64,000 nt of DNA from Bacteroidales bacterium (GCA_016285175.1 JAEEQF010000001.1:32099-96098), one strand, 5' to 3'. Counted from the first letter of the stretch, positions 12,582 to 28,132 are shown. Notes: generated from the letters alone by a model not told the origin. Numbers and translations are program-made.

Positions 12582-13649
12582 TTGGCAGTACGGCCATTTT
12601 TTCGTAAATTGGCGGAAATAAACAGAGCCTTAACCGATACGAGACCGTCCATAACCCTTCTTACCTCCCTGCTGCTATCCGCACTGGTCCTTTCCGGCTG
12701 CGGCACTTCCCGCATGGCCGTCCAGGGCGAGGAAGGCTTCAAATTCTGGCTGGAGCGCAGCTATGAGTCCGAGGGGTATCAGCAGGACCGCGTGATGCTG
12801 GTGGATCCGCAAGGGGATGCCATGCTAATCCGGAAACTGGACACGGCCTTTGTAAAACTGGCTTCGGCCTTTTTCCACCAGGACCTGCCCCAGGCCGTAT
12901 CGGACAGGGAAAGAAAGGCCGGAGAGGCCGATTTCAAAATTGGGAAAACCTATTCCCTTGACAATGAGCTGCTGCTGGAACAGTTTGCCGATATCATCCG
13001 CCGGAACTATCCTGCCATTTCGCCGTACATCGGGGAAGAGCATGTATGGTCTCCAGAGGCTAAAGTCTATAATCTGTATGGCTACTGGCACCGCCTGTGG
13101 AGAAGGTTCTCCGGAAAGCAGCAGGACTTCCCCATCCCCGTTTTCATGCGGAGCAAACTGCTCATGTGCCTGGCCTGCGGCTGGACTTCCCGCTACTGTA
13201 TAACCGGGACGGAAGAAGCTCTGAAAGAGAGGATTATGAGCTATCCCGACCATAGCCTGCAAATCCACGAACTCTTTGCCGAAAGCTATGTCCTGAACCA
13301 GGGGAACCTGTATATGACGCTCCTCTCCTGCGAGAATGTGCTCACCGGCCAGCCCCACCGGGCAGAGCGGGAATTCGATCCGCTCCAGCAGAAACTCTCC
13401 TACATCCGGAACGACTCAAAACCGCTGGGCGACAACTACGGCGCCTGGTACCATTTCTTCGGCATCGCCCTCTATGGCATGCTCCGGCCGCAGTTTGTCT
13501 CCACCTTTGTGGCCAATACGGAAAGCCTGGGTTCCTTCTTCATGGAAGGGCCGGACCGGCAGGAAACCCTCATCAACTATTACGGAGCCCTTTTTGGCAA
13601 AGAGCTCCGTAAAACCATCAAGAAAGGAAGCTGGCGACAGGCTCAATAG
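12582..13649 (+). CDS. hypothetical lipoprotein
   Basis: 355 aa. The only in-frame start before the lipobox (LVLSGCGT) is the TTG at 12582. No family recognised. The 3' end overlaps the convergent GDPD gene by 7 nt. Confidence 0.5.
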   Translation: MAVRPFFRKLAEINRALTDTRPSITLLTSLLLSALVLSGCGTSRMAVQGEEGFKFWLERSYESEGYQQDRVMLVDPQGDAMLIRKLDTAFVKLASAFFHQDLPQAVSDRERKAGEADFKIGKTYSLDNELLLEQFADIIRRNYPAISPYIGEEHVWSPEAKVYNLYGYWHRLWRRFSGKQQDFPIPVFMRSKLLMCLACGWTSRYCITGTEEALKERIMSYPDHSLQIHELFAESYVLNQGNLYMTLLSCENVLTGQPHRAEREFDPLQQKLSYIRNDSKPLGDNYGAWYHFFGIALYGMLRPQFVSTFVANTESLGSFFMEGPDRQETLINYYGALFGKELRKTIKKGSWRQAQ

Positions 13650-14989
13650 CCCAGACGCTCCAGCGTAGCCACCGGATCCGGAACCGCCGCCGGGGCCGAT
13701 GCGCTGCGGAGCCCGTGGTCCAGCAGGTACTGGAGGGTAAGGTCCGAACGGTTGGTGAAAAAGCCGTCGGAACGGGAAGTCTGCTCCTCCATCTGTATCA
13801 CGGAATCAAATGAATAAGGATGGTTGAGCATGCCGGCTTTCCGCACCAGGGCGGCCTGCCAGGCATTGTTAAGCTCCGAATAATTGTTGGGTTCGCCGGA
13901 AATGGACGGTCCGCTGATGCTGGCGCCGTTGGCCTTGGCCCAGTCCAGGATGGCCTGGAAGCCTTCCGGCGTATCCAGGTCACCGCCGGGAATCTCTTCC
14001 GGGCAAGGCGGCCACAGGAGGAAGCACATGGGAAGCTTTCCCTTGAAAACGGCATTGGCACGCACCAGGGACGCCGGAGAGAAGGTTTGCAGGATCACCT
14101 TGCCGGCGGTCTTTCCCACCTGCACCTTGCCATCCTTGTAGAATTCCTTCTCCGTGGCGGGGGAAGTGATGATGTTCCACCCTGCGGCATCCAGGATGTC
14201 GTACACCCGCCGTTCCATGTCCTCCGGATTCACCTCCGGCTCCTTGAATTCGATATAGATGCCGGGCCGATGGCCTCCGTCGGCAGGGTCGGCCTCATAG
14301 GCAAGCGAGAAGTCATAATCCAGCATTTCCATGTATTTCCCGCCCTCGGCGGCCGTGGAGCGGATATCGGAGAGGGTTTTCCCTTTGCAGGAATCCTTCA
14401 GTTTCCAGGGCAAGACGCGATGGCCGTCGGCATCCCGGCGGAGCCGCTTTCCCTCGGCATAGGCAATCTGGTCCTGCAAGGCCGATACATACTGGCTGCG
14501 CGCAAAGGCCTCACGCGCCTGCTCCGGCCGTGCGGCATTGAACCAGGAACCGGCATCCAGCATGAGCAGTTCTGCATAATAATAGGAGGCGGCGAAATAA
14601 GGCTTGAAAGCTTCCCGGTCCAGGGAAAGCTGCTCATCGGCATCGGCCTGGGAGAAGCCCAGGGACAGGTAGAAATCCCTCCGCGAAGCCGGCACACCGG
14701 CCCCGAAGACCTCTTCAATGTTGGTGGTGCGGGTAAGGTTCACGTCGTGATTGGCCAGGATGATACCGTCCTTGGTGCACTGGAGGTCGCTTTCCAGATA
14801 GTCCGCGCCCATTTCACGCGCCCAGCGCCAGGCGCTCTCCGTCTCTTCCGGAGCCCAGTAGGTGGAACCGCGATGGGCCATTACGGCATAGGCAGGTACA
14901 TTTTCATTTACAGTAAGGGGACTTGGCTGCTCCGCGCAGGAGACAAGCGCCGCAATCCAGGCCAGCCCGGCAAGACGTATCAGTTTCAT
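13643..14989 (-). CDS. glycerophosphodiester phosphodiesterase family lipoprotein
   Basis: GDPD motifs AHRGSTYWAPEETESAW and ESDLQCTKDGIILANHD. Trimmed from the track's TTG at 15082 to the ATG at 14987-14989 (MKLIRLAGLAWIAALVSC lipoprotein signal), because the extension contains the promoter box. Confidence 0.8.
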   Translation of the reverse strand: MKLIRLAGLAWIAALVSCAEQPSPLTVNENVPAYAVMAHRGSTYWAPEETESAWRWAREMGADYLESDLQCTKDGIILANHDVNLTRTTNIEEVFGAGVPASRRDFYLSLGFSQADADEQLSLDREAFKPYFAASYYYAELLMLDAGSWFNAARPEQAREAFARSQYVSALQDQIAYAEGKRLRRDADGHRVLPWKLKDSCKGKTLSDIRSTAAEGGKYMEMLDYDFSLAYEADPADGGHRPGIYIEFKEPEVNPEDMERRVYDILDAAGWNIITSPATEKEFYKDGKVQVGKTAGKVILQTFSPASLVRANAVFKGKLPMCFLLWPPCPEEIPGGDLDTPEGFQAILDWAKANGASISGPSISGEPNNYSELNNAWQAALVRKAGMLNHPYSFDSVIQMEEQTSRSDGFFTNRSDLTLQYLLDHGLRSASAPAAVPDPVATLERLGY

Positions 14990-15003
14990 AGTATCTGTTT
15001 TTG

Positions 15004-15011
15004 CAAAGATA
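15004..15011 (-). promoter_or_regulatory. -7 promoter box (TAtcTTTG) for the GDPD gene
   Basis: Minus strand reads CGTATCTTTGCAA, 14 nt upstream of the ATG at 14989. Confidence 0.5.
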
Positions 15012-15071
15012 CGAAAAATGCCGCAAAACCATGTGAGGGGGCTAAAAGTTGCTTTTCTAGAAGAAAAGTAG

Positions 15072-15079
15072 TACCTTTG
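15072..15079 (+). promoter_or_regulatory. -7 promoter box (TAccTTTG) for the DUF3575 locus
   Basis: AGTACCTTTGCAAA 35 nt upstream of the ATG at 15114. Confidence 0.5.
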
Positions 15080-15113
15080 CAAAATTTTTCGCCGTTAGTA
15101 GTTTGGTTAGGGC

Positions 15114-16109
15114 ATGAATACCATTAAACGATGGTTGGTAGTTATTCTTATGTGCGCTTTTGCCTGGGCATCTCCCCTGGCCATGGCGCAGGATAATTCC
15201 CATACCTCGGAGAAGGATGCATCCAAAGGTCTTTTTGCCTTAAAAACCAATCTCTTGGAGTGGACGGCCGCCATCCCCAACCTCTCCGTGATGGCGGATC
15301 TTTCCGGCAAGCCCTGGAACCGTTCCGTAGCCGCCCTCACACTCAAGTATAAATGGAAGACCAGCGAGACTTACGTCCCTTCCTATATGCTGAACCTCCT
15401 GGAGATCCGCCCCGAATACCGTTATTATCTGAATAACAGATTCTACGTGGGCGGCTATGCGGCGTACAGCAACTTCACCGCCAAACTGCCCAACAATCCC
15501 ACGGGCTGGACGGGTTTTGCCGCAGGCGGCGGCGCCTCGGGCGGAATGGAACTCCCGCTGTACCAATACCGGAAGAGCGCCCTGGATATTGAGTTCGGCC
15601 TCTCCCTGGGAGCCCATTATGCCTTCTACCGGGACTTTACCGCCAACGCCGACCACACCGGCATCGAGATTTCCAGCACCCCCGCCGGGCGCGTCCTTCC
15701 CTATCCGGAACTGCGAGTGGCGCTGGTGTGGCGCAAGACTTCGGTAAAAGACAAGTACAACGAAACCGATCCCATGAAGGCGCTCTATGCCCAGGAAAAG
15801 GAATCCATCCAGATCAACCTGAACGCCACCAACAAAGAGACCTTCGACGCCATGCAGCAGGGGAAGCTGAAATTCTACCAGGATAACATCTTCCACGACC
15901 TGTACCGCAACGACGCCGAAGCCTACCGGGCCGATTATGAGGCCTATCTCCAGGAGAGTTTCGTGGATATGGCCCTGGACAGCGTGGAGCATTCCCGCCT
16001 GGATGAACGCTCCAAGAACAAGCTGCGCAAATGGGTGGAAAGCCTGCGCAAAAAAGCCCTGGCCGATTTTGACAGATCCCTTAAAGCAGAGTTAAATAAA
16101 GTTAAATAA
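15114..16109 (+). CDS. DUF3575-type outer-membrane barrel protein with a ~130-aa charged helical C-terminal extension
   Basis: 331 aa with a signal peptide. FALKTNLLEW...IPNL and RPEYRYY match the DUF3575 hallmarks KTNLL and PExRYW. The C-terminal third is K/E/D-rich (KLRKWVESLRKKALADFDRSLKAELNKVK). Confidence 0.7.
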   Translation: MNTIKRWLVVILMCAFAWASPLAMAQDNSHTSEKDASKGLFALKTNLLEWTAAIPNLSVMADLSGKPWNRSVAALTLKYKWKTSETYVPSYMLNLLEIRPEYRYYLNNRFYVGGYAAYSNFTAKLPNNPTGWTGFAAGGGASGGMELPLYQYRKSALDIEFGLSLGAHYAFYRDFTANADHTGIEISSTPAGRVLPYPELRVALVWRKTSVKDKYNETDPMKALYAQEKESIQINLNATNKETFDAMQQGKLKFYQDNIFHDLYRNDAEAYRADYEAYLQESFVDMALDSVEHSRLDERSKNKLRKWVESLRKKALADFDRSLKAELNKVK

Positions 16110-16112
16110 GTG

Positions 16113-16691
16113 ATGGCACGTCTGAGTAAGGCATATCTCCTGGTGATGGCACTGTTCCTGCTGCTTCCGCTGCAGGCCGGCGCCCAGCGGCTGGCCGTAA
16201 AGACCAACGTGCTGTCCCTTGCCGCAGCCACCCCCCACCTGGGATTTGAAATGGTGACGGGCGAACATGTGAGCCTGTCGCTAAGCGCCTTCGGCAGTTC
16301 CAATCCCTACTGGAGGGACAAATCCCTGGGCGAAGACGTTTCCACCCGCTTTTTCGCCCTGCGCCCGGAAGTCCGATACTGGTTCAACGGACGGCCCCTC
16401 ACGCGTTTTTTCGCCGGTGCAAACATCCTGGCGGGCAGCTATGACTTCCCCCTCTGGGGCACGCTCCATAAGGGCACCCTGGCCGGACCGGGACTGTCGG
16501 TGGGCTATGTCATCAATCTGGGAAAGCGCCTGGACCTGGAGTTCACCTCCGGCGCCGGAGTGCTGTTCTACTGGGGAAAACGCTCTGCCGGCGACGGCTC
16601 CGTCCCCGCGGAGGACAGTCTGCCCAAGACCTGGGGCTACAAACTCACGCCCAACCAGTTAGGCATCACCCTGGTCTATATCATCAAATAA
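16113..16691 (+). CDS. DUF3575 domain outer-membrane barrel protein
   Basis: 192 aa from the ATG at 16113 (the track starts at GTG 16110). Signal peptide, then AVKTNVLSLAAATPHLGFE, RPEVRYWF, GPGLSVGYVINLGKRLDLEF and GITLVYII. Confidence 0.75.
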   Translation: MARLSKAYLLVMALFLLLPLQAGAQRLAVKTNVLSLAAATPHLGFEMVTGEHVSLSLSAFGSSNPYWRDKSLGEDVSTRFFALRPEVRYWFNGRPLTRFFAGANILAGSYDFPLWGTLHKGTLAGPGLSVGYVINLGKRLDLEFTSGAGVLFYWGKRSAGDGSVPAEDSLPKTWGYKLTPNQLGITLVYIIK

Positions 16692-16694
16692 GCT

Positions 16695-19154
16695 ATGGGG
16701 AAGGTCTTCAGACATATCGTTTCGCTTCTTCTCTGCCTGGCAGCCCTGCCGGCGGCCTTTGCGCAGGATATCAAGACCGTGTCCGGCGTAATTACATCGG
16801 CCGAAGACGGCAGCCCCATCTCGGACGGCATAACGGTCTATACGTACATGACCACCGCCGAGGCCCGGGACGACTACAACCGGATCAAGCAGATGCTGGA
16901 AGAGAACAGCCTGGCGGGATATGTCTTCTCCGGCATCCCCAACACCACCCTGGGCAATTACTATTCGGTCCAGGTGGCGGGTACCGGCGCCCTCCTGTTC
17001 TTCTATGAAGACGCCCGCGTGATCAGGATGGAAGAGGTGAAAGGCCGCCTGGAGATCAATGTGGCCCTGAAAGTGGCCCGCCAGATCCAGAGGGCTATCA
17101 TCGAGGCCGATAATCCCAAGCCCTACGTGGTGCTGGAATCCATCCCCATCTCCGGCGACAACGAGATTGCCTCCGAATTCACCTTCCTGTTCTCCGGTGA
17201 CGCGGCCGGCCGGCCGGATGCCCGTTTCGCCATCCAGGCCTACCTGCTGGGAGAGAACCGGAAAGACACCCTCCAGTACTTCCACCCCATCGTCCTGGAC
17301 GGCAAGGATTATCACAAGACCCAGCTCCGGCGGAAAGACTTCAACCCGGAAGAGGATTATCTCTACCAGTGCGCCGAGGAGGCCCCGGACTTCCTCAGCG
17401 ACTCCACCGTGAGCATCACCTACCCCTTCCGCTTTAAACTGGAAAGCCGGGACGATATCCGCTACTTCTGCTACAAGTATTGGATGGAAGACTATAACAG
17501 GGTCTTCGTGCAGGATTCGGCCCAGGTGTTCTCTACCGCCCGCCTGCAGGACCCCATGCAATTCCTGGAATACCAGTTTGACAGCTACAACCTGGATCCG
17601 GACGACTACTTCGTGGACGCCCAGCGGGAACGGCACACCGGCAAGAAGGAACTGCCCCTGCGCTTCATGGTGGGTAAATCCCGTATAGACCCGGCCGATA
17701 CAACCGGTCTCCGCGCCCTGGCGGAGATCAAGCAGGAGATTTCCGATATCGCTTCGGACCGGGATGCCAGCCTGAAGGAACTCTATATCTCCGGCGTAGC
17801 CTCGCCCGAAGGCAACTACAGCAAGAATGTAGACCTGGCAAAGGCCCGCATGAACTACCTGCTGGACAACATCCTCTCCGTCCTTCCCTCCTACAGCCGC
17901 CAGCGGGTGTACCAGAGCGGCACTTCCCGTGTAGCCGGATGGGAAGAGGTGGCCGATATCCTGGAGCGGGATTCGCTGCAGGCCCTCTCCGCCCAGGTGC
18001 GGGAGATAGCCTCCACCTATTCCGGAAAGATGGACAGCCAGTGGGCCCGGGTGCAGCGCCTGCCGGAATACCAGAGCCAGATAGCGCCCCGCCTGCCGGA
18101 ACTGCGCTCCGTATCCTGCACCTACCTTAGTGAAGTATACCGGAAACTGCTTCCGGAAGAAATCCTGGAAAAATACAACAGCGACCCTGAATACCGCAGC
18201 GGCAAGAAAAAGCTTACGCTCAACGAATACTGGAACCTGTACCGGATGCTCAGCGACGAAGAGGAACTGGAGGGACTGTACAAGAGAGGCATCACGGCCG
18301 CCGGGGAGATGAGTTACTTCTGGCCGCTGCCCGCCAACAACCTGGCCGTTTCCTACATCCAGAAAGGCCAGGTGGACACCACGCTGCTGAAGCCCTATCT
18401 CCACGAAGGATATTCCGTGAACCGGCCCATCATGAGCATGGCGGACCCCAACAAATACGAAAGGGTGTGGAATCTGGATCCCATAGTGGCCAACCAGGTT
18501 ATCATGCTGCTGAATGCCAAATCCAGCACCCGTGCCGTATTCTGGGCCACCTACCTCAAGAATCTGCCCCAGTACAACACCCTGTATCACATTGCCCGTT
18601 GCCTGGGCGGATACTATCAGGTGGATAATGAGGAAGGACGTGAAACCTTCCTGGTGGTAAGCCGGTCCTCCACCCGCAACGCCGCCGTCATGAATATGGC
18701 CGTGGGGTCCTGGGCCAATGCGGAGAAGGCGCTGGACGCCCTGCCGCAGGAGGAGGCCCTCACCCAATATATGCGGGCCCAGTTCCTGGCGCGGAAATTC
18801 GGCGGCGGACGCGACTACGGCCGCATGCAGGAGGAACTGTGGGGTATGGACGAGATCGGCCTGGATATCATGGTGTCGGATGCCGCCAAGACCTTCCTCA
18901 AGGAAGCTTTCCGGCAGGATGACAGTTACCGCCTCACGGCACAGAAGGACGCCTACCTGCCGGAAGACCTGGTAGCGGAAGCCGCCCTGGAATGGGCCCA
19001 GGAGCTCAAGGGCGTACCCGGAAAGGAAGAGGCCCTGAAAGATTACCTGGCCACCTGCCTGAGGATGAACCGGAATATGCTCCGGCGCATCCAGGCGGGG
19101 TTCCCGGAAGATATAGTGGACGCAGCCCGCGTGAGGATGAACACATTCGAGTAA
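16695..19154 (+). CDS. large secreted composite protein (CarboxypepD_reg-like N-terminus, DUF3868-like middle, OmpA-tail-like ASPEG motif, helical C-terminal half)
   Basis: 819 aa with a signal peptide (ALPAAFAQD). Contains IKTVSGVITSAEDGSPISDGITV, then ISGVASPEGNYSKNVDLAKARMNYLLDNI, then about 400 aa of helical-repeat-like sequence. Domain assignments are from memory of the families, not from a search. Confidence 0.55.
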   Translation: MGKVFRHIVSLLLCLAALPAAFAQDIKTVSGVITSAEDGSPISDGITVYTYMTTAEARDDYNRIKQMLEENSLAGYVFSGIPNTTLGNYYSVQVAGTGALLFFYEDARVIRMEEVKGRLEINVALKVARQIQRAIIEADNPKPYVVLESIPISGDNEIASEFTFLFSGDAAGRPDARFAIQAYLLGENRKDTLQYFHPIVLDGKDYHKTQLRRKDFNPEEDYLYQCAEEAPDFLSDSTVSITYPFRFKLESRDDIRYFCYKYWMEDYNRVFVQDSAQVFSTARLQDPMQFLEYQFDSYNLDPDDYFVDAQRERHTGKKELPLRFMVGKSRIDPADTTGLRALAEIKQEISDIASDRDASLKELYISGVASPEGNYSKNVDLAKARMNYLLDNILSVLPSYSRQRVYQSGTSRVAGWEEVADILERDSLQALSAQVREIASTYSGKMDSQWARVQRLPEYQSQIAPRLPELRSVSCTYLSEVYRKLLPEEILEKYNSDPEYRSGKKKLTLNEYWNLYRMLSDEEELEGLYKRGITAAGEMSYFWPLPANNLAVSYIQKGQVDTTLLKPYLHEGYSVNRPIMSMADPNKYERVWNLDPIVANQVIMLLNAKSSTRAVFWATYLKNLPQYNTLYHIARCLGGYYQVDNEEGRETFLVVSRSSTRNAAVMNMAVGSWANAEKALDALPQEEALTQYMRAQFLARKFGGGRDYGRMQEELWGMDEIGLDIMVSDAAKTFLKEAFRQDDSYRLTAQKDAYLPEDLVAEAALEWAQELKGVPGKEEALKDYLATCLRMNRNMLRRIQAGFPEDIVDAARVRMNTFE

Positions 19155-19161
19155 AGGAAAC

Positions 19162-22100
19162 ATGAAGGGAAACAATAGGATATCGATGCTGCTGCTTGCC
19201 GCCTGCCTCCTGCTGGGGCCGGCCTTCCGGACCCATGCCCAGGAAGATACCCTCCGGGTAAAGGAAGAACCCGGCATCTTTGACATGAAGATGCAGCACA
19301 GATACACTCCCTCGCACCAGCCCTTCCAGGAGCCTGGCAGGAACGCCTTCCTCCGGATACTGGAGAACAGCAGCATTTCCCTTTCCGGCAGTTACCACCG
19401 CTGGCTGGACCCGGATCTCAGTTCCGGTCCGTCCCTCACGCTTTCCCTGGGAAAATGGGTCTCGCCCACCCACGGCTTCCGGATCGAGGCCGGCACCGGT
19501 TATTTCTTCAACAACGAAAACCGCAGCCGGGTGAAAATGCTCCCGGACATCCGGGTATCCCATCTCTTCAATTTATCGGCCTATCTGGATGGTTACAACC
19601 CCCTGAGGCTGGGAGACCTCTATACCATAGCCGGCGCAGGATACACCTGGCAGTACCATGGCCGGGAAACCGGCAGCTGGACCGCCCAGCTGGGCCTGGG
19701 GTACAGCATGCACATCCTCCGGGGCACCGACCTCTTTGTGGAGCCGGTATGGGAGCTGAACGGCAACGGCTTCGTGCAGCAGCAAGACGGCAACTGGCGC
19801 GGCTATTATGGCGGTTTCCGTGGAAACGTGGGCATCAGCTACCGGATAGACCGCTGGAATCCCCTGCTTGCACCCAAGAGGGAACACCGCTGGTTCCTGA
19901 TGGCCACCGGCGGCCCCGCCTGGCTGGTCTATTCCCCTTCGTCCACGCAGAAGGCTGGTTATCAGGTAACCCTGGGCGCCGGAGAGCGGCTCACCAGAGC
20001 CGTGAGCGTGCGCCTCACCGGGTCCTGGACACAGGCTTTCCTGCCTTCCGATTCCCAGGAACAGGCCCATTACGGAGCCCTCCGCCTGGAAGGCATGCTG
20101 GACCTGTTGGGACTGGGACGGCAGGACGAACGGCCCCTGAGCCTTTCCGTCATGGCCGGCCCGGAAGTAGGCTTCATGGACAGGGCCCAGGCCGATAAGA
20201 ATATTTATGGCCGTATCGGCCGGCTGGGCAGCCAGTTCTACTATGTGGGAGCAACAGCCGGCGTTCAGCTTAACACCCGGATATTCAAGCGCTTCCACGC
20301 TTTCCTGGAGCCCCGTGCCTCCCTGGTTCCCTATACGGTCCTCAATGCGGCCGACAACAAGGTGGAGAATACGCTGGACGTTCTTGTGAGCGCCAACCTG
20401 GGCCTCCAGTATGCCATCCCCACCGTGGAAGACAGAAGAGCCGCCTGGGAGAGGACCAAACAGTGGTCCCGGGACAGTTGGAACAAGACCGTGGAGTGGG
20501 ACCGCCGCACCTGGGATAACCTTAACGAACGCTGGGACAGGACCCGGGAAAAAATGCGGCGTACCGGTCAGCGGATGAACCTCTTCGCCTCGCTGGAAGG
20601 CAGTTACTTCCGTCCGCTGGGACGGGACTTCGCCAACGGTCCCATGGCTTCCCTGTCGCTGGGCACCTGGTTCCATCCGCAGCACGGCGCCATGATCAAT
20701 ACGGGCCTGGGCTACTTCCAGGACCTGCAGTACGGGAACGGCTATGTGAAAACCATGGAGTTCTCGGCCTCCTATCTCTTCAACCTGACTAATTTCGCCA
20801 AGGGATGGGATCCGGACCGCCAGGTGAGCCTGTCGCTGCTTGCCGGTGCCGGATATATGATGCCGCTGAGGGAGAAATGGACCGGATCGGCCATCTTCCG
20901 TACCGGACTGGACCTGCGCATGCACGTACTGCCCCGGACCGATATGGTCGTCCGTCCGGAAATGGATTTCCTCAAGGCTCCGTCGGATGTATGGTCTCCC
21001 GCCCTGCGCGGCACCTTCGGCCTCAGCTACAGCATGGGTGGCGCACCTGTGGCCAACTTCTCCGACAAAGGCAGGGAGTGGTATGTACTGGCGGGCGCCG
21101 GCTTCCAGAACGAAATCCTGCGCCTGGCGAGCCAGAAATATGAAGAGGATCCGTACAGTGAATACCGTATCAATGTGGGCGTAGGCCGAAAATACTCGGC
21201 CCGCATGGACTGGCGGCTTTCCGTATCCTACCTGAGCGAACTCCACAACTACCGGAGCAGCACCTTCGCCCACCGGCTCCGCTTCGCATCCGTGAACATC
21301 GACGCCCTCTATAACCTGGTGGGCGACGAGCTGGTGGACCGGAGATGGTCCCTGTCGCTGGTAGGCGGTCCGGAAATCGGCCTGCAGCATAAGAGCAACG
21401 AGGGCGAGGACATCAAGGGCAGCGGACTCATCTTCCAGCGCAGCACCATATCGGCCTACCTGGGTGTATCGGCCGGTGTCCAGATGAAATACCGCTTCAC
21501 GGACGGATTATCCATCTTCCTGGAGCCCAAATATACGCTGGCACCTTACGTGGCCAGGACCACCACGGGAGACGAAAACTACTATTCCCACGTCTACGGA
21601 ACCAATTTCGGCCTGGAATACGCCTTCGGCCGCAACCGCTATCTCACTCCGGGCATCGGGGAAAAGGAGGCGCGTGAGCGGAAGGAAAGGGCCATCCCCT
21701 ATTTCTTCATCCAGACCACCGGAACCATCATCCGTCCCTTCGGCGCGGGCTACGGCCAGGGTCCGCTCGTGAATGTGGCCCTGGGATACTGGTTCCGCGG
21801 CGCCAGCGGCGTGATGCTGGACTATGGCCTGGGTTACTTCCGGGACAATCAGCTCACCGTGGGGGCCGATGGACGCGAGTACCGTCCCCAGCACATGGCC
21901 ACCATGAGCTACCGGGCCTCCTACCTGCTGAGCCTGTCCCGCCTGGCCACCCGGAATGCCGTGGCCGGCCTCCCCGTGGAGGCGGCCCTGATGGCCGGCG
22001 TGGGCTACATGCTCCCCGAATTCAAGCAGAAGGAAACCGGAACCCTCTCCGCACATGCCGGCTTTGACTTCCGGATCCACGTGCTCCCGGGAACCGACCT

Positions 22101-22830
22101 GGTGGTGGAGCCGCAGCTGGAACTGTTCAAAGACCCGCACGCCATGGTGGACGGCACCCGGAAAGGCCTTGCCGGCGCTTTCAGGGGAACCTTCGGCGCC
22201 AGCTATAACCTGTCCAGGCGTGGCATCTTCCCCGCACAGGATCCCGGAAAGGACTGGTTCATAAATGTTTCGGCCGGTTACCAGAACGAGTCCGGCCGCC
22301 TCTCCGGTCCGGATGCGGAGGATGTCTACCACAACGAATACCGGATTTACCTGGGCTTCGGACGGCGCTATTCCAACGCCTTCAGCCTCCGCCTGGGCGG
22401 CTCCTATTCGGAGATTACCCCGCAGGAGGGCTCGTTCCTGCACAGCCTGCGCTACACCTCCGCCAACCTGGACTTCATCTACGACCTGATGGCCAACGAA
22501 GCGGGTGACAACCGGGTATCCCTGGGCCTGCTCGCCGGTCCCGAAGTGGGCTTTGCCAACAAGAGCCACGGAAAGGCCGGCCAGGAGAATCCCATGACCC
22601 TCCCGCTCAAGATTATGGGCCGGAGGAACCACGGTGTAACGGCCTATGTGGGCCTTTCCGCAGGCCTGCAGTTGAAGGTGAAGGTTGTGGACGGCCTGTC
22701 CCTGTACCTGGAGCAGCGCTACTCCATGGTCCCGTATGTGTCCCTCTACAGCAGCACCGACCACCGGAACATGACCACGCATCTGTGGAATGCCAGCTTC
22801 GGCGTCCAGTATTCTTTCGGCCAGAAATAA
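19162..22830 (+). CDS. 1222-aa outer-membrane protein made of three tandem ~350-375-aa beta-barrel-like modules
   Basis: Signal peptide (LLGPAFRTHAQE). Three colinear modules at about aa 66-420, 473-823 and 847-1222. Each splits into two ~175-aa halves and ends in an aromatic-x-aromatic motif (LQYAIP, LEYAFG, VQYSFGQK). Confidence 0.7.
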   Translation: MKGNNRISMLLLAACLLLGPAFRTHAQEDTLRVKEEPGIFDMKMQHRYTPSHQPFQEPGRNAFLRILENSSISLSGSYHRWLDPDLSSGPSLTLSLGKWVSPTHGFRIEAGTGYFFNNENRSRVKMLPDIRVSHLFNLSAYLDGYNPLRLGDLYTIAGAGYTWQYHGRETGSWTAQLGLGYSMHILRGTDLFVEPVWELNGNGFVQQQDGNWRGYYGGFRGNVGISYRIDRWNPLLAPKREHRWFLMATGGPAWLVYSPSSTQKAGYQVTLGAGERLTRAVSVRLTGSWTQAFLPSDSQEQAHYGALRLEGMLDLLGLGRQDERPLSLSVMAGPEVGFMDRAQADKNIYGRIGRLGSQFYYVGATAGVQLNTRIFKRFHAFLEPRASLVPYTVLNAADNKVENTLDVLVSANLGLQYAIPTVEDRRAAWERTKQWSRDSWNKTVEWDRRTWDNLNERWDRTREKMRRTGQRMNLFASLEGSYFRPLGRDFANGPMASLSLGTWFHPQHGAMINTGLGYFQDLQYGNGYVKTMEFSASYLFNLTNFAKGWDPDRQVSLSLLAGAGYMMPLREKWTGSAIFRTGLDLRMHVLPRTDMVVRPEMDFLKAPSDVWSPALRGTFGLSYSMGGAPVANFSDKGREWYVLAGAGFQNEILRLASQKYEEDPYSEYRINVGVGRKYSARMDWRLSVSYLSELHNYRSSTFAHRLRFASVNIDALYNLVGDELVDRRWSLSLVGGPEIGLQHKSNEGEDIKGSGLIFQRSTISAYLGVSAGVQMKYRFTDGLSIFLEPKYTLAPYVARTTTGDENYYSHVYGTNFGLEYAFGRNRYLTPGIGEKEARERKERAIPYFFIQTTGTIIRPFGAGYGQGPLVNVALGYWFRGASGVMLDYGLGYFRDNQLTVGADGREYRPQHMATMSYRASYLLSLSRLATRNAVAGLPVEAALMAGVGYMLPEFKQKETGTLSAHAGFDFRIHVLPGTDLVVEPQLELFKDPHAMVDGTRKGLAGAFRGTFGASYNLSRRGIFPAQDPGKDWFINVSAGYQNESGRLSGPDAEDVYHNEYRIYLGFGRRYSNAFSLRLGGSYSEITPQEGSFLHSLRYTSANLDFIYDLMANEAGDNRVSLGLLAGPEVGFANKSHGKAGQENPMTLPLKIMGRRNHGVTAYVGLSAGLQLKVKVVDGLSLYLEQRYSMVPYVSLYSSTDHRNMTTHLWNASFGVQYSFGQK

Positions 22831-22929: not shown

Positions 22930-24834
22930 ATGAAAATCAACTCAGCCGATGCTCTTGAAAGCATCAGACGGGAGGCCGCCCTGGCCCTGGCCGTCAGGGA
23001 GGAGAGCAACCTGGCCGTGAGCGAGCAGTCCTGCGGTCTGGAAAAAGGAACGCCGCATATGCAGATCCTCTGCTGCGGCGGTACGGGTTGCAAAGCCTCC
23101 GAAAGCGCAAAGATCGTTGAGAACTTCCGCTCCAGCCTCGCCGCGCACGGCATTGCCGACAAGGTGGAAGTGCTGGTTCCCGGTTGCTTCGGCTTCTGCG
23201 AAAAAGGTCCCATCGTAAAGATCATTCCGGACAATACCTTCTACACTTCCGTCCATCCGGAAGACGTGGAAGAGATTGTCACCTCCCACATCATCGGCGG
23301 GAACAGGGTGGAGCGGCTCCTTTACCTGGACCCCGGAAGCGGAAAGCACATCAGCGACTCCAAGCACATGAATTTCTACCGCAAGCAGCTGCGGATCGCC
23401 CTCAGGAACTGCGGTTTCATCGATCCGGAGAACATCCTGGAATACATTGCACGGGACGGCTACAAGGCCCTCTCCGACAGCCTGAACCGGGACAGCCTGG
23501 ACGTGCTGGCCGATATCAAGGCCTCCGGCCTCCGCGGCCGCGGCGGCGCCGGCTTCCCCACAGGCGTGAAGTGGGAGATCGCCCGCAAATTCGACGCCCC
23601 CCACAAGTATGTGGTGTGCAATGCCGATGAAGGGGACCCGGGCGCCTTCATGGACCGTTCCATCATGGAGGGAGACCCCAACTCCGTGATTGAAGCCATG
23701 ATGATCTGCGGTTACTGCATCAACGCCAACCATGGCCTTATCTATATCCGTGCGGAATATCCGCTGGCGGTGCACCGTCTGCAGGTGGCCATCTCCCAGG
23801 CCCGCGAATACGGCCTGCTGGGAGACCATATCCTGGGTACGGACTTCTGCTTCGACATTGAAATCCGTTACGGCGCGGGCGCCTTCGTCTGCGGCGAGGA
23901 AACCGCCCTCATCCATTCCATGGAAGGAAAGCGCGGCGAACCCACCCTCAAGCCCCCGTTCCCGGCCGAGGCGGGTTATTTCGGCTATCCCACCAACGTG
24001 AACAACGTGGAGACCCTGGCCAACGTACCCGTCATCCTCACCAAGGGTCCCCAGTGGTTCTCTTCCATCGGCACGGAGAAATCCAAGGGCACCAAGGTAT
24101 TCGCCCTGGCCGGCAAGATCAATAACGTGGGCCTCATCGAAGTGCCCATGGGTACCACCCTCCGCGAAATCATCTACGATATCGGCGGCGGCGTAAAGGG
24201 CGGAAAGAAGTTCAAGGCCGTGCAGACCGGCGGTCCCTCCGGCGGCTGCCTCACGGAAAAGCACCTGGACATCCCCATCGACTATGAGAGCCTGGCGGCT
24301 GCCGGTTCCATGATGGGCTCCGGCGGTATGATCGTGATGGACGAGGACGACTGCATGGTGTCCGTGGCCAAATTCTTCCTGGAATTCACCGTGGGCGAAT
24401 CCTGCGGCAAGTGCACGCCCTGCCGTATCGGCAACAAGCGGATGCTGGAAATCCTCACCCGCATCACGGAAGGCCGCGGCAAGATGGAAGACATCGACAC
24501 GCTGGAAAACCTGGCCAAGGTGATCAAGGACACGGCCCTGTGCGGTCTGGGACAGACCTCCCCCAACCCGGTCCTTTCCACCATAGCCAACTTCCGCGAC
24601 GAATACGAGGAGCACGTGAAGGACCATATTTGCCGGGCCCGCAAGTGCAAGGCCCTGCTCACCTACAGCATCGACCCGGTGCTGTGCAAAGGCTGCAGCG
24701 CCTGCGCCCGCGGCTGCCCCGCCGAAGCCATCGCAGGCGAAGTCCGGAAACCCTTCGTCATCAATCCCGAAAAGTGCATCCGCTGCGGCATGTGCCTGAG
24801 CCGGTGCAAGTTTGGAGCTATCCGCGTAATCTAA
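22930..24834 (+). CDS. hydB: [FeFe] hydrogenase NADH/FMN-binding subunit (NuoF-like, HydB)
   Basis: 634 aa. N-terminal thioredoxin-like 2Fe-2S region (CCGGTGC...GCFGFCEKGP), GRGGAGFPTGVKW, ESCGKCTPCR, and a C-terminal 2x[4Fe-4S] region (CKGCSACARGCP, CIRCGMCLSRC). Confidence 0.85.
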   Translation: MKINSADALESIRREAALALAVREESNLAVSEQSCGLEKGTPHMQILCCGGTGCKASESAKIVENFRSSLAAHGIADKVEVLVPGCFGFCEKGPIVKIIPDNTFYTSVHPEDVEEIVTSHIIGGNRVERLLYLDPGSGKHISDSKHMNFYRKQLRIALRNCGFIDPENILEYIARDGYKALSDSLNRDSLDVLADIKASGLRGRGGAGFPTGVKWEIARKFDAPHKYVVCNADEGDPGAFMDRSIMEGDPNSVIEAMMICGYCINANHGLIYIRAEYPLAVHRLQVAISQAREYGLLGDHILGTDFCFDIEIRYGAGAFVCGEETALIHSMEGKRGEPTLKPPFPAEAGYFGYPTNVNNVETLANVPVILTKGPQWFSSIGTEKSKGTKVFALAGKINNVGLIEVPMGTTLREIIYDIGGGVKGGKKFKAVQTGGPSGGCLTEKHLDIPIDYESLAAAGSMMGSGGMIVMDEDDCMVSVAKFFLEFTVGESCGKCTPCRIGNKRMLEILTRITEGRGKMEDIDTLENLAKVIKDTALCGLGQTSPNPVLSTIANFRDEYEEHVKDHICRARKCKALLTYSIDPVLCKGCSACARGCPAEAIAGEVRKPFVINPEKCIRCGMCLSRCKFGAIRVI

Positions 24835-24843
24835 GAGTGCCCT

Positions 24844-26604
24844 ATGGAAAACATGATTAACCTTACCATCGACAACCGTCCCGTGTGTGTTCCCAAAGGA
24901 ACCACCATCCTGGATGCGGCCGCTTCCGTGGGAATCGACATTCCCGCCCTGTGCCATCTGGACCTCAAGGGCACCTGCGTAAAGAACACCCCCGCTTCCT
25001 GCCGCATCTGCGTGGTGGAAGTTCAGGGCCGCCGCAACCTGGCCCCTTCCTGCGCCACACAGGTAATGGAAGGCATGGTTGTGAACACCAATTCGGCCCG
25101 TGTGATCCGCGCCCGGAAGACCGTGGCGGAGCTCATCCTGTCCGACCATCCCAACGACTGCCTCACCTGCCCCAAGTGCAACCACTGCGAACTGCAGAAA
25201 CTGGTGACCCGTTTCAACATCCGTGAGATGACCTACAAGGGCGAACAGTCCACCCGCAAGAAGGAACAGACCCTGGCCATCACCCGCAACATGGACAAGT
25301 GCATCCTCTGCCGCCGCTGCGAAAGCGTTTGCAACAATGTCCAGAGCGTGGGCGTGCTGGGTGCCGTCCGGCGCGGTTTCGACACCACCATCGCCCCCAC
25401 CTTCGACCGCATGTTCTCGGAGACGGACTGCACCTACTGCGGCCAGTGCGTGGCCGTATGCCCCACCGGCGCCCTCACCGAGCGGGACAATACGGACCGC
25501 CTGCTGGAAGACATCTGCAACCCCGACAAGGTGGTGATCGCCCAGCCGGCTCCCGCCGTGCGCGTGGCCCTGGGAGAGGAATTCGGCTATGAGCCCGGCA
25601 CCATCGTGACCGGAAAACTGGCCACCTCCCTCCGCCGCCTGGGTTTTGACTATGTCTTTGACACGGACTTTGCGGCCGACCTTACCATCATGGAGGAAGG
25701 TTCGGAAATCCTTCACCGGCTCAAAGCCTTCCTGGGCGGAGACAAGAGCGTGAAACTGCCCATCATGACCTCCTGCTGCCCGGCCTGGGTGAACTTCTAC
25801 GAGCACAACTTCCCGGACCTGCTGGAGTATCCTTCATCGGCCAAATCCCCCGCCCAGATGTTCGGCGCCATCGCCAAGACCTACTGGGCCCAGAAGATGG
25901 GCATCCCGCGGGAGAAGCTGGTGGTCGTCTCCATCATGCCCTGCCTGGCCAAGAAGTTCGAATGCGAACGCGAAGAATTCAAGGTGGACGGCAATCCGGA
26001 CGTGGACTACAGCATCTCCACCCGTGAACTGGCCCGCCTGATCAAGCGCTCCAACATAGATTTCCGCACCCTGGAAGACTCCGACTTTGACAAACCCCTG
26101 GGAGAGAGTTCCGGTGCGGCCGTGATCTTCGGCGCCACCGGCGGCGTAATGGAAGCGGCCCTGCGTACCGCCTACGAATTATACACCGGAAAGACCCTTC
26201 CCCGCATCGAATTCCACGAAGTCCGCGGTCTGGAAGGCATCAAGGAAGCCACCATCGACCTGGACGGATTCCCGCTGAAGGTGTGCGTGGCCCATACCCT
26301 GGGCAACGCCCGGTACCTGATGGACAAGCTCCGTGCAGGAGAACTGGATTACCATGTGGTGGAAGTGATGGCCTGCCCCGGCGGCTGCATCGACGGCGCC
26401 GGACAGCCCTACCACCACGGGGATGTGGAAATTATCAAGGCGCGCGCAAAGGCCATCTATGCCGAAGATGCCGGAAAGCCCATCCGCAAGAGCCACGAGA
26501 ACCCCGATATCCAGAAACTGTACAGGGAATTCCTGGGCGAGCCGCTGAGCGAGCGCGCACATCACCTCCTCCACACCTGTTATTCCGATAAAACCATCAA
26601 GTAG
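24844..26604 (+). CDS. hydA: [FeFe] hydrogenase catalytic subunit (HydA, M3-type architecture)
   Basis: 586 aa. H-cluster motifs TSCCPAW, MPCLAKKFE and EVMACPGGCIDGAGQP. The N-terminus has a 2Fe-2S domain and ferredoxin-like Cys clusters. Confidence 0.92.
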   Translation: MENMINLTIDNRPVCVPKGTTILDAAASVGIDIPALCHLDLKGTCVKNTPASCRICVVEVQGRRNLAPSCATQVMEGMVVNTNSARVIRARKTVAELILSDHPNDCLTCPKCNHCELQKLVTRFNIREMTYKGEQSTRKKEQTLAITRNMDKCILCRRCESVCNNVQSVGVLGAVRRGFDTTIAPTFDRMFSETDCTYCGQCVAVCPTGALTERDNTDRLLEDICNPDKVVIAQPAPAVRVALGEEFGYEPGTIVTGKLATSLRRLGFDYVFDTDFAADLTIMEEGSEILHRLKAFLGGDKSVKLPIMTSCCPAWVNFYEHNFPDLLEYPSSAKSPAQMFGAIAKTYWAQKMGIPREKLVVVSIMPCLAKKFECEREEFKVDGNPDVDYSISTRELARLIKRSNIDFRTLEDSDFDKPLGESSGAAVIFGATGGVMEAALRTAYELYTGKTLPRIEFHEVRGLEGIKEATIDLDGFPLKVCVAHTLGNARYLMDKLRAGELDYHVVEVMACPGGCIDGAGQPYHHGDVEIIKARAKAIYAEDAGKPIRKSHENPDIQKLYREFLGEPLSERAHHLLHTCYSDKTIK

Positions 26605-26606
26605 CC

Positions 26607-27086
26607 ATGAGTGAGATTAAAGTATCCTGCGAGGCGCTCCGCCAGGTGGAGGAGATCTGCCGCAAATTCCATAACGACCCCGGTGAACTCATTACCATCC
26701 TGCACGAAACCCAGAACACCCTGGGCTATCTGCCGGAGCCGGTACAGCGGGTGATTGCCCGCGAACTGGGCATATCGGCCCAGAAGGTCTATGGCGTAGT
26801 TACCTTCTACTCCTTCTTCTCCATGGTTCCCAAGGGCAAGTATCCGGTGTCCGTATGCCTGGGCACGGCCTGCTATGTCCGCGGTTCGGACAAGGTGCTG
26901 GAAGAATTCAAGCGCGTGCTGGGCATCGAGGTGGGCGAGACCACCCCGGACGGCAAGTTCTCCCTGGACTGCCTTCGCTGCGTGGGTGCCTGCGGCCTGG
27001 CGCCGGTGGCCACCATCGGCGAGAAAGTCTATGGCCGATTGAATCCCTCCGACATCAAGAAGATTGTTGCCGAGTTCGAGGATTAA
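26607..27086 (+). CDS. hydC: [FeFe] hydrogenase 2Fe-2S subunit (NuoE-like, HydC)
   Basis: 159 aa. CLGTACYVRG...CLRCVGACGLAPV is the thioredoxin-like 2Fe-2S pattern of NuoE/HydC. Confidence 0.85.
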   Translation: MSEIKVSCEALRQVEEICRKFHNDPGELITILHETQNTLGYLPEPVQRVIARELGISAQKVYGVVTFYSFFSMVPKGKYPVSVCLGTACYVRGSDKVLEEFKRVLGIEVGETTPDGKFSLDCLRCVGACGLAPVATIGEKVYGRLNPSDIKKIVAEFED

Positions 27087-28132
27087 GGAAGGGAAACCCT
27101 TTCCAGCATCCCCTGCAACCGGGCGATAGCGATTCCGTAATTGGTGATGGGCACTCCCGCAAGGAGTGCCTTTCTTATGCGGGAACGCACCAGGGCGCCG
27201 CCAGCCACACAGGCGCCGCAGTGGATGATTAGGCTGTAAGGCGACAGGTCTTCCGGGAAATCGTTCCCGGCAGCGATATCGATGGAAACGGCCGCTTTCC
27301 TGCGGAGCAGCACAGGAATCTTTACCCGGCCGATATCTTCCGTATCTGGCACATGGGTGCAGGCTTCGGCAATGAGCACATGGTCTCCGTCCTTCAGGCG
27401 GCCGATGGCCCCGGCTCCTTCCACAAACGCCCGAATATCCCCCTTCATCGCCGCCAAAAGGATGGAAAAGGAGGTGAGCGGCCACTCCGGAGGAATGGTC
27501 TGGTTCACCAGTTTAAACACCTGGGAATCCGTAATTACCAGATTGGGCGTCATGTCCTTAAGCGCAGCAGGCAGCGATTCCGGAGTGCAGCACACCGGAA
27601 CGCAGCCGCGGTCCAGCAGTTCCCGGAGCACCTGCACCTGCGGCAGGATGAGACGGCCTTTGGGTGCCTCGCTGTCCTGCGGCATTACCAGCAGCACCTT
27701 GTCACCGGCTTTCACCAGATTCCCGGTGAGGTATTTCTCCTGCTCCCCGGGGGCGGCGGCCGCAAGCTGTTCCAGCAGGGACTCCCTGCTCTGCCCCCGT
27801 GCGTAACGCACCACGGGAATGCCGGCCCGTTCCAACTCTCCCATCAGGCTGGGGATGACAGGATCCAGAACCACGGCTAAATCCGTTTCGTCCAGGATGC
27901 GGCGAGTAAGGCGGGAGCGTTCAGGGCCCAGGACCCCCGCATCGTCCAAGCCGGCCGTATCTATGAGCACGCAGGGCCCCAGACCGGGCAGTTCGATAGC
28001 CTTCCGCACCGGGTCCGTGGTTGTGCCCGGCACAGGGCTCACCAAAGAAACCTCCTGACCGGCCAAGGTATTGACCAGCGTGGATTTCCCGCTGTTGGGA
28101 GGGCCGAAGAACGCTATGTGGAGCCTTTCCAT
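27083..28132 (-). CDS. hydF: [FeFe] hydrogenase H-cluster maturation GTPase HydF (compact form)
   Basis: 349 aa. G1 GPPNSGKS, G3 DTAG, C-terminal cluster-binding CTH...HCGAC. No NKxD/TKxD G4 motif is visible. Confidence 0.8.
   Translation of the reverse strand: MERLHIAFFGPPNSGKSTLVNTLAGQEVSLVSPVPGTTTDPVRKAIELPGLGPCVLIDTAGLDDAGVLGPERSRLTRRILDETDLAVVLDPVIPSLMGELERAGIPVVRYARGQSRESLLEQLAAAAPGEQEKYLTGNLVKAGDKVLLVMPQDSEAPKGRLILPQVQVLRELLDRGCVPVCCTPESLPAALKDMTPNLVITDSQVFKLVNQTIPPEWPLTSFSILLAAMKGDIRAFVEGAGAIGRLKDGDHVLIAEACTHVPDTEDIGRVKIPVLLRRKAAVSIDIAAGNDFPEDLSPYSLIIHCGACVAGGALVRSRIRKALLAGVPITNYGIAIARLQGMLERVSLP

Follow-up and report, generated by a model that had tools for sequence, protein, structure and literature searches.

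The open reading frame (ORF) at 19162-22830 on the plus strand of a 64,000-nt stretch of Bacteroidales bacterium DNA (GCA_016285175.1, JAEEQF010000001.1:32099-96098; the whole stretch is referred to here as the window) encodes a 1222-aa protein, translated without internal stops, and it raises the question of how many β-barrels one secreted chain can hold and what such a chain would do. We know of no solved outer-membrane β-barrel structure with more than one barrel per chain; multibarrel chains are so far a matter of prediction. The initial annotation of the window described the protein as three tandem modules, each composed of two halves resembling small barrels of the OmpA/OMP_b-brl type and each ending in its own outer-membrane protein (OMP) insertion signal. 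The computational analysis reported here leads us to consider it probable that the product, in this uncultured member of the Bacteroidia, is an outer-membrane protein of the poly-8 type, written (8)6, ie six tandem eight-stranded barrels, each separately closed, forming a scaffold or anchor that works with the products of the same operon. Direct support comes from the repeat anatomy, the β-barrel prediction, the unit-wise closure indicated by coevolution, the conservation of the operon and the statistics of a last-strand motif.

When the whole protein was compared with itself by BLAST only the identity match was obtained, and the repeats surfaced in module-against-module searches. Pairwise BLASTP of residues 66-420, 473-823 and 847-1222 gave identities of 29%, 30% and 37% over approximately 350-380 residues (E-values of 1.5e-41, 5e-37 and 5e-79), and phmmer concurred. 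Module borders set by a hidden Markov model (HMM) fell at residues 64-423, 468-826 and 842-1222, nearly the same as those proposed initially, and all the recurring sequence blocks quoted in support of the three colinear modules are present in the translation. The further claim, that each module splits into halves of about 175 residues, was also borne out. Profiles of the N-terminal and C-terminal halves of 60 modules aligned with an hhalign probability of 99.6% (E 3.8e-24) at a sequence identity of only about 16%, and an iterated 174-position unit HMM matched the protein six times, with 107-127 bits per match.

The units alternate between an N-type and a C-type, and each is predicted to form an eight-stranded barrel; all coordinates are on the plus strand. 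The N-type units are unit 1 (residues 65-232, 19354..19857; 126.8 bits, eight strands in the AlphaFold2 model, ending GNVGISYRI), unit 3 (residues 471-628, 20572..21045; 115.9 bits, in a module modelled with a confidence of 83, ending GTFGLSYSM) and unit 5 (residues 843-1020, 21688..22221; 107.0 bits, stranded in the AlphaFold2 model, ending GTFGASYNL). The C-type units are unit 2 (residues 239-421, 19876..20424; 117.7 bits, AlphaFold2 model likewise, ending ANLGLQYAI), unit 4 (residues 636-825, 21067..21636; 115.5 bits, with a weak OMP_b-brl match, ending TNFGLEYAF) and unit 6 (residues 1028-1222, 22243..22827; 111.6 bits, also in the AlphaFold2 model), whose end, ASFGVQYSFGQK, is also that of the whole protein.

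It is practically out of the question that the long ORF is an artefact, in which three genes were fused by sequencing errors or repeats were misassembled. The modules are merely 29-37% identical to one another. In addition, 5.8 billion clustered proteins were searched and 30 relatives found, 17 of which are full-length (1114-1224 aa, 47-99% identity), come from many independent assemblies and keep the identical, uninterrupted three-module layout; frameshift and misassembly were rejected on that account, and the view that the modules arose by an old duplication stands. The composition of the gene is normal for the window (GC 0.58-0.62). Contig scanning with the single protein as query found no locus, and an alignment-based scan gave three.

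The family to which the protein belongs is large. A module-profile search of 1.84 billion representatives (50% identity) returned at least 2000 proteins with E <1e-3, including 411 with E <1e-30, and the 150 matches listed range from 417 to 2889 aa. Between 2 and 15 units per protein were counted in 175 family proteins. Odd numbers are common, with 3 units in seven proteins, 5 in 52, 7 in 30 and 9 in nine, and members with 11 and 15 units also exist; the odd counts imply that the unit of about 175 aa, not the 350-aa module, is the autonomous evolutionary piece. At the long end, P0033, P0047, P0019 and P0031 have 15, 12, 10 and 8 units (2889, 2427, 2095 and 1694 aa, respectively). The expansion in P0033 involves C-type half-units only, which points to recent tandem amplification of single barrels. 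Relatives were found in Prevotella sp. UBA2742 and Candidatus Barnesiella, the family as a whole occurring in gut and rumen Bacteroidia, and the named cluster members are all called 'hypothetical protein'.

Structure prediction with AlphaFold2 gave an all-β model of the whole chain (20-sequence alignment) with three sets of 16 long strands and a two-helix linker after unit 2, at a predicted local distance difference test score (pLDDT) of 70 and a predicted TM-score (pTM) of 0.51. Module 2 on its own (36-sequence alignment) was modelled with 16 strands at pLDDT 83 and pTM 0.75. A Foldseek search of the PDB with the module model matched outer-membrane β-barrels only (OmpG, FadL and porins, E 1e-8). 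Superposition on these matches was poor (TM-score 0.2-0.3, root-mean-square deviation (rmsd) 17-20 Å), and the whole-chain matches, to TonB-dependent transporters and LptD (E 1e-7), were uninformative at a TM-score of about 0.1 and an rmsd of approximately 30 Å. The local β-meander is matched, but the module model superposes on no single barrel of 14-22 strands, and the low TM-scores indicate that it is not one barrel of 14-16 strands. Nor does it behave as a 16-stranded general porin, the values across the OmpG, FadL and porin matches listed being a TM-score of 0.14-0.27 and an rmsd of 16-24 Å, with no coupling between strands S1 and S16.

Known families were compared next. Unit 4 matched Pfam OMP_b-brl with E 3.1e-3 and 18.1 bits over profile positions 36-172 of 175, and this best unit of the window lies below the PF13505 gathering threshold of 28.7. 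Several relatives match OMP_b-brl or OMP_b-brl_2 across one unit, and one of them, P0039, scores 31.1 bits against OMP_b-brl, where the gathering score is 28.7. Judged by these profile matches, the window protein is a remote homologue of the OMP_b-brl clan without formal Pfam membership. Like the domains of OMP_b-brl (PF13505) and OMP_b-brl_2 (PF13568), the unit spans about one 175-position profile, and it shares with such barrels the alternation of glycine and aromatic residues, a last strand of the form G-x-x-Y-x-F and charged pairs filling the lumen. Unlike them, the window units score below threshold (18 vs 28.7 bits), and the periplasmic turn T2 of the unit, which is conserved, spans 13 residues and includes a short helix (YLxNL...GYxPxR), is unusual among small OMPs. 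No OmpA_C domain (PF00691) was found in the 1222-aa protein by the Pfam search. To our knowledge, the characterised members of the OMP_b-brl type, OmpA and OmpX among them, have one barrel each.

Barrel closure was assessed by mean-field direct coupling analysis (DCA) of 765 directly consecutive unit pairs taken family-wide (effective number, Meff, 737), the strands of a pair being numbered S1 to S16. The couplings S1-S8 (z 3.0) and S9-S16 (z 3.6) were each above all 102 control pairs. Those of S8-S9 (z -1.0) and S1-S16 (z -0.9), contacts that a fused barrel needs, were at background, and 144 of the top 150 couplings were within units. The same method at the level of the single unit (957 aligned units, Meff 910) recovered all seven hairpins, with ladder scores of 0.38-1.54; S1-S8 was the top non-adjacent pair, roughly level with S1-S7, and there were lumen-crossing pairs, for example R47-E136 (S3-S7). 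Module-level DCA on 315 sequences, which is underpowered for closure, gave 0.08 for S1-S8, 0.20 for S9-S16 and 0.17 for S1-S16, and S8-S9 coupling was not seen. Unit-wise coevolution, the variable and odd unit counts and the low TM-scores favour six separately closed eight-stranded barrels, as a prediction, over three 16-stranded barrels or one giant barrel. The proposal of up to six small OmpA/OMP_b-brl-like barrels concatenated in one secreted chain is supported by the all-β modules, by closure unit by unit and by relatives at or near the Pfam thresholds.

This arrangement has a computational precedent. Of the 34 multibarrel architectures that were predicted by Solan et al. (PNAS 2021; PMC8346858), poly-8 chains were the commonest. 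They describe a Bacteroidetes-only poly-8 superfamily with 2-11 barrels, (8)6 included, and a second poly-8 superfamily with 2-3 barrels and an α-helical linker; poly-8 MB-superfamily 1 holds 289 proteins from Prevotella and Bacteroides. Arrangements of 8-8 were separated from 16 by contact prediction, as was done here, and none of the structures known in 2021 had, according to the same source, more than one barrel per chain. The family in the window resembles those of Solan et al. in its tandem eight-stranded barrels, its restriction to Bacteroidetes (Prevotella, Bacteroides and others), its variable copy number with amplification and deletion of units, its coevolution-supported closure and the possible sorting signal on each barrel. 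The poly-8 class calls for two or more tandem, non-overlapping eight-stranded domains; the window protein has six by prediction (six unit-HMM matches, three sets of 16 strands), and the domains are self-closing by paired-unit DCA, a result that is computational and holds at the level of the family.

The differences lie in detection and in size. The sets of Solan et al. (PMC8346858) were found by matching HMMs for barrels whose structure is known. No significant match of that kind was obtained for the window protein, in which the only domain match to such families is the weak one of unit 4 (E 3e-3); some relatives do match. In comparison with the 2-11 barrels described in that paper, the family is also much larger, with at least 2000 representatives and up to 15 units. 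Set beside these families by their description, the window protein belongs to the computationally known poly-8 architecture. The initial annotation had called the architecture unfamiliar from characterised OMPs, and this needs to be qualified: it had already been predicted as poly-8, (8)6 included, but since the description by Solan et al. is computational only, it does not amount to a well-characterised family. For experiments on multibarrel or poly-8 proteins, the literature searches run turned up nothing but the 2021 paper and a modelling of GfcD.

The ends of the units were then considered as possible insertion signals. All six end in a last strand of the form Φ-G-Φ-x-Y-x-Φ (GISYRI, GLQYAI, GLSYSM, GLEYAF, GASYNL and GVQYSF, the last followed by GQK). 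A signal-like ending is thus real, as the initial annotation had it, but it closes all six units and not just the three modules, and it is strictly aromatic-x-aromatic in units 4 and 6 only, units 1, 2, 3 and 5 ending Y-x-I/M/L. Across 956 units of the family (171 terminal, 785 internal), the fixed-position glycine is present in 96% of terminal and 95% of internal units and an aromatic residue at -3 in 82% and 70%, respectively. The final position is phenylalanine in 73% of terminal units, 84% of which end at this residue, and it is aromatic in 21% and hydrophobic in 67% of the internal ones. There is one signal-like strand per barrel, and the terminal phenylalanine is typical of the true last unit of the protein only. 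By sequence, the strands agree with the classical signal of the β-barrel assembly machinery (BAM), a C-terminal strand of the form G-x-x-aromatic-x-aromatic/hydrophobic with phenylalanine as the ideal last residue; recognition by BAM itself is a prediction. Recent fusion was raised by Solan et al. (PMC8346858) as a caveat on internal signals of this kind, and in the present case it does not explain why the motif is retained, because the units are old duplicates, with about 16% identity between halves.

At its N-terminus the protein carries a signal peptide of 26 residues (19162..19239, plus strand; MKGNNRISMLLLAACLLLGPAFRTHA|QED), predicted to be cut by signal peptidase I at THA|Q to leave an N-terminal glutamine. 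Such a glutamine is usual for signal-peptidase-I substrates in Bacteroidetes, the so-called Q-rule. The sequence LAAC at residues 12-15 allows a lipoprotein reading, which was rejected; the A|Q junction is kept in homologues and Cys15 is not, and the protein is for that reason taken as a signal-peptidase-I substrate. Between the signal peptide and unit 1 lies a conserved pre-barrel segment (residues 27-64, 19240..19353, plus strand) with the motif F-x-x-K-M-Q-x-R-Y-x-P. Alignment A1 shows no variation at its Q18, P23 and F28 and hardly any at R20, and in distant homologues the motif recurs as (Y/H)xLQ(K/R); the segment is possibly a periplasmic docking peptide.

Outer-membrane barrels canonically have an even strand count and both termini in the periplasm, and loops and turns were assigned on that assumption, under which the linkers between units would be periplasmic. 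The linkers are of 5-16 residues (median unit gap 13), except for a Trp/Arg-rich helical one of 49 residues between units 2 and 3 (residues 422-470, 20425..20571, plus strand), for which AlphaFold2 gives helices at mature residues 395-415 and 419-440 with low to moderate pLDDT. This longer linker is present in the closest homologues, and only about 8-30 aa are found there in P0012-P0017. Its helical hairpin has a tryptophan every 5-7 residues (AAWERTKQWSRDSWNKTVEWDRRTWDNLNERW). Given how short the others are, the barrels must be placed next to one another in the outer membrane. The predicted surface loops are mostly of 2-7 residues, with N-type L4 reaching 13 and C-type L3 16-25, and they are the least conserved part of the unit, at 0.27-0.54 bits per column compared with 0.94-1.40 bits for the periplasmic turns. 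The signature residues (GxWFxP..G.R, DYLxNL...GYxPxR with its short helix, and LFxEPR) fall in periplasmic turns and in the strand ends close to the periplasm. Conservation is concentrated at that end, so that the functional face appears to be periplasmic, and the barrels look more like closed anchors than like pores or loop-based adhesins.

Four genes on the plus strand, spaced by 0, 3 and 7 nt, form a tight operon with the poly-8 gene at its end. Gene 1 (15114..16109) encodes a 331-aa DUF3575 protein (Pfam E 1.1e-12, with a weak OMP_b-brl match) in which a signal peptide with A|Q at its end is followed by a small OMP-like barrel and by a charged, helical C-terminal extension of about 130 aa. 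Gene 2 (16110..16691) encodes a 193-aa DUF3575 protein, a small barrel matching the full profile (E 3.4e-31), gene 3 (16695..19154) an 819-aa partner protein with a signal peptide, and gene 4 (19162..22830) the six-barrel protein itself, identified from its repeat anatomy, AlphaFold2 model and coevolution. The signal peptides of genes 1 to 4 all end Ala|Gln (LAMA|QD, QAGA|QR, AAFA|QD and RTHA|QE). DUF3575 proteins appear in a table of outer-membrane-vesicle proteins of P. gingivalis (PMC12937337). The units showed no detectable homology to the neighbouring DUF3575 barrels (hhalign probability <3%), and the latter are consequently not simply further copies of the unit. Scans for a sigma-70 promoter and an intrinsic terminator gave nothing beyond expectation.

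The order of the genes is conserved. In all eight relatives' loci inspected, an ORF of about 170-210 aa is followed directly by a partner of about 670-830 aa and then by the poly-8 gene. L001 and L002 carry one and the same protein, which leaves seven distinct loci. They include relatives at 21-25% identity, a Prevotella metagenome-assembled genome and poly-8 proteins of 753-2095 aa (4-10 units). In six loci (L001, L002, L003, L007, L008 and L009) a Pfam match to DUF3575 was recorded for the small ORF, which was recognised in L004 and L006 by size and position only. Counterparts of gene 1 (about 300-335 aa) occupy the equivalent position in L001, L004 and L006, and in L003, L007, L008 and L009 the short DUF3575 gene stands alone without the longer one. 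This cassette of DUF3575, partner and poly-8 genes, present at every one of the relatives' loci inspected, is new here; a link between poly-8 proteins and such an operon is not mentioned in the parts of Solan et al. (PMC8346858) consulted.

The partner protein begins with a domain (residues ~25-140) like the N-terminal extension (NTE) of SusC, its first 115 or so residues matching the N-terminal domain of the SusC homologue 5t3r_D in a profile search of the PDB (E 1.1e-5); CarbopepD_reg_2 was found in 4 of 16 partner homologues (best E 2.6e-10). After it comes a segment L(E/D)EVxV resembling the TonB-box region of SusC, clearest in distant homologues. There is no plug or barrel after the NTE domain. 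What follows is an OmpA-like motif, 'ASPEG...N..LA..R', and then a long helical region that makes up the C-terminal half. The motif region (residues ~318-396) is conserved in all 16 homologues, with G367, S370, P371, G373, N378, L381 and R385 invariant, and an OmpA_C-like domain in the partner is suggested, although not proven, by alignment in register with a genuine OmpA-family protein and by weak Pfam matches. The partner is much the better conserved of the two, with 72-86% identity among its closer homologues and 47-83% among those of the barrel protein. Taken together, the operon resembles OmpA in that it pairs small eight-stranded barrels with a periplasmic protein bearing an OmpA_C-like motif, and by analogy it could work as a split, multivalent OmpA-type tether of the envelope. 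It differs from OmpA in that barrel and OmpA-like domain are on separate polypeptides, in having six barrels instead of one and in the weakness of the OmpA-like assignment.

Several of the results allow for other architectures. If each 350-aa module were a 16-stranded barrel, the chain would hold three porin-sized channels, as might be suggested by the 16 consecutive strands of the AlphaFold2 module (pTM 0.75), by the module, not the half, being the best-conserved repeat in the window's own subfamily, and by engineered tandem OmpX, a head-to-tail duplication of an eight-stranded barrel that can fold as a single 16-strand pore (Arnold et al. 2007, J Mol Biol 366:1174, as given in PMC8346858). 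Fusion of units is thus physically possible. In the present family, unlike tandem OmpX, coevolution indicates separate closure: S1-S8 and S9-S16 rank first and neither S8-S9 nor S1-S16 coevolves. With TM-scores of 0.2-0.3 to barrels of 14-16 strands, with relatives of 3, 5, 7, 9, 11 and 15 units, and with a strong lumen-crossing R47-E136 pair that suits a narrow barrel, channels of this kind are improbable. A single barrel built from all 48 strands, comparable to the barrels of 36 to 40 strands that are known from Bacteroidetes or predicted there, among them the 38- and 40-strand ones predicted by Solan et al. (PMC8346858), has the large-barrel Foldseek matches of the whole chain (E 1e-7) in its favour, but these superpose at a TM-score of about 0.1 and an rmsd near 30 Å. 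The closing of units individually, with nearly all the top couplings inside them, the 2-15 units among relatives and the misfit of a 49-aa helical linker and of variable linker lengths to a continuous wall make it extremely improbable. Six separate barrels nevertheless have points counting against them, of which the fusion of tandem OmpX is one. Closure was deduced indirectly, from coevolution, anatomy and TM-scores, and the z-scores of 3.0-3.6 come from simple mean-field DCA on pairs from the family at large, not from the window's subfamily. The module profile had no match in a PDB sequence search. Pfam and NCBIfam searches with the whole 1222-aa protein were also without a significant match. 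Since the units are homologous, the G-x-x-Y-x-Φ ending may be structural instead of a signal for BAM. For the partner, OmpA PF00691 matches are weak (6 of 16 homologues, best E 1.7e-3), and alignment of its motif to a genuine OmpA-family protein, although in the expected register, had an hhalign E of 0.01 and a probability of 4%.

The fate and use of the chain can likewise be read in other ways. Cleavage of a polyprotein precursor in the periplasm or at BAM, the multibarrel form being transient, would accord with the β-signal-like end on each unit, with linkers exposed to the periplasm under the canonical topology and with the further single small barrels in the partner operon. Most linkers are, however, short (5-16 residues) and without a conserved cleavage motif, the conserved cassette is without a protease gene at the loci inspected, and enrichment of the terminal phenylalanine is confined to the true last unit, although it would be expected in all units if each became a free C-terminus; we regard processing as very unlikely. 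A multivalent surface adhesin, in which many adjacent OmpA-like barrels use their surface loops to attach to repeated epitopes, gut polysaccharides for example, has somewhat more to recommend it. Adhesion and avidity were put forward as a hypothesis by Solan et al. (PMC8346858) for the poly-8 proteins of Bacteroides and Prevotella, the range of 4 to 10 units among orthologous operons is as expected from avidity tuning, and the surface loops are variable. The shortness of most of those loops (2-7 residues, the exceptions being N-type L4 and C-type L3), their place as the least conserved part, the periplasmic concentration of conservation and a conserved operon partner that looks periplasmic make this an unlikely function all the same.

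The six-barrel anchor would come about as follows. After export by Sec and cleavage by signal peptidase I at THA|Q, the chain would be delivered to the BAM complex, where each unit would be folded as a barrel in its own right and then released into the membrane. Connected through short periplasmic linkers, the six barrels would sit next to each other in the outer membrane, and the array would act as a membrane-embedded, multi-point anchor or scaffold presenting six copies of the conserved periplasmic turn both to the DUF3575 barrels and to the operon partner, a possible binder of peptidoglycan and/or TonB. Such a role is suggested because the barrels are too narrow for pores, the loops are short and variable and the conserved features are periplasmic. 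The outer-membrane location, the barrel-by-barrel insertion by BAM, the contact with operon partners and the function as scaffold or tether are all inferred. More tentatively, the cassette may specify an undescribed envelope complex of Bacteroidia, in which one or more DUF3575 barrels and the periplasmic SusC-NTE/OmpA-like partner, with its TonB-box-like strand, are joined by a row of 4-10 barrels as an anchor in trans of tunable length, each barrel offering one conserved docking turn on its periplasmic side, a possibility that we hold to be the less likely outcome.

The surroundings of the operon were also inspected. Upstream, a 435-aa ORF (13820-15127, plus strand) was considered as the first gene of the operon and rejected; it has no family match and no counterpart in L004, and its translation is Gly/Arg/Pro-rich and antisense-looking. 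The genuine gene at that place encodes a protein of the glycerophosphodiester phosphodiesterase (GDPD) family (13643-15082, minus strand) and is divergent from the operon. Downstream, at 22930-28132, there is a three-gene [FeFe]-hydrogenase cluster unrelated to the poly-8 gene, encoding a Nuo51/NuoF-like protein of 634 aa, an Fe-only hydrogenase large subunit of 586 aa and a thioredoxin-like 2Fe-2S protein of 159 aa, with a HydF maturase gene on the opposite strand. It was read as a HydABC-type, electron-bifurcating cluster.

For annotation, the consequence is that a 'hypothetical protein' of more than 1200 aa can be resolved into six OMP_b-brl-like domains. Beyond this, interest attaches to the size and plasticity of the family, to its internal and terminal β-signals and to an operon suggestive of an envelope complex not described before. 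Barrel number is evolutionarily plastic, from 2 to 15 units, against strong conservation of the partner protein, and the conserved operon context points to a function and supplies testable partners. Solan et al. (PMC8346858) left open whether a single C-terminal signal is enough or whether each barrel is inserted separately by BAM, and the family offers a natural system for that question. Its diverged internal barrels keep a β-signal-like strand and only the last keeps the terminal phenylalanine, so that, if six barrels are indeed closed one by one, it would constitute a natural test of the way in which BAM deals with a chain of several barrels.

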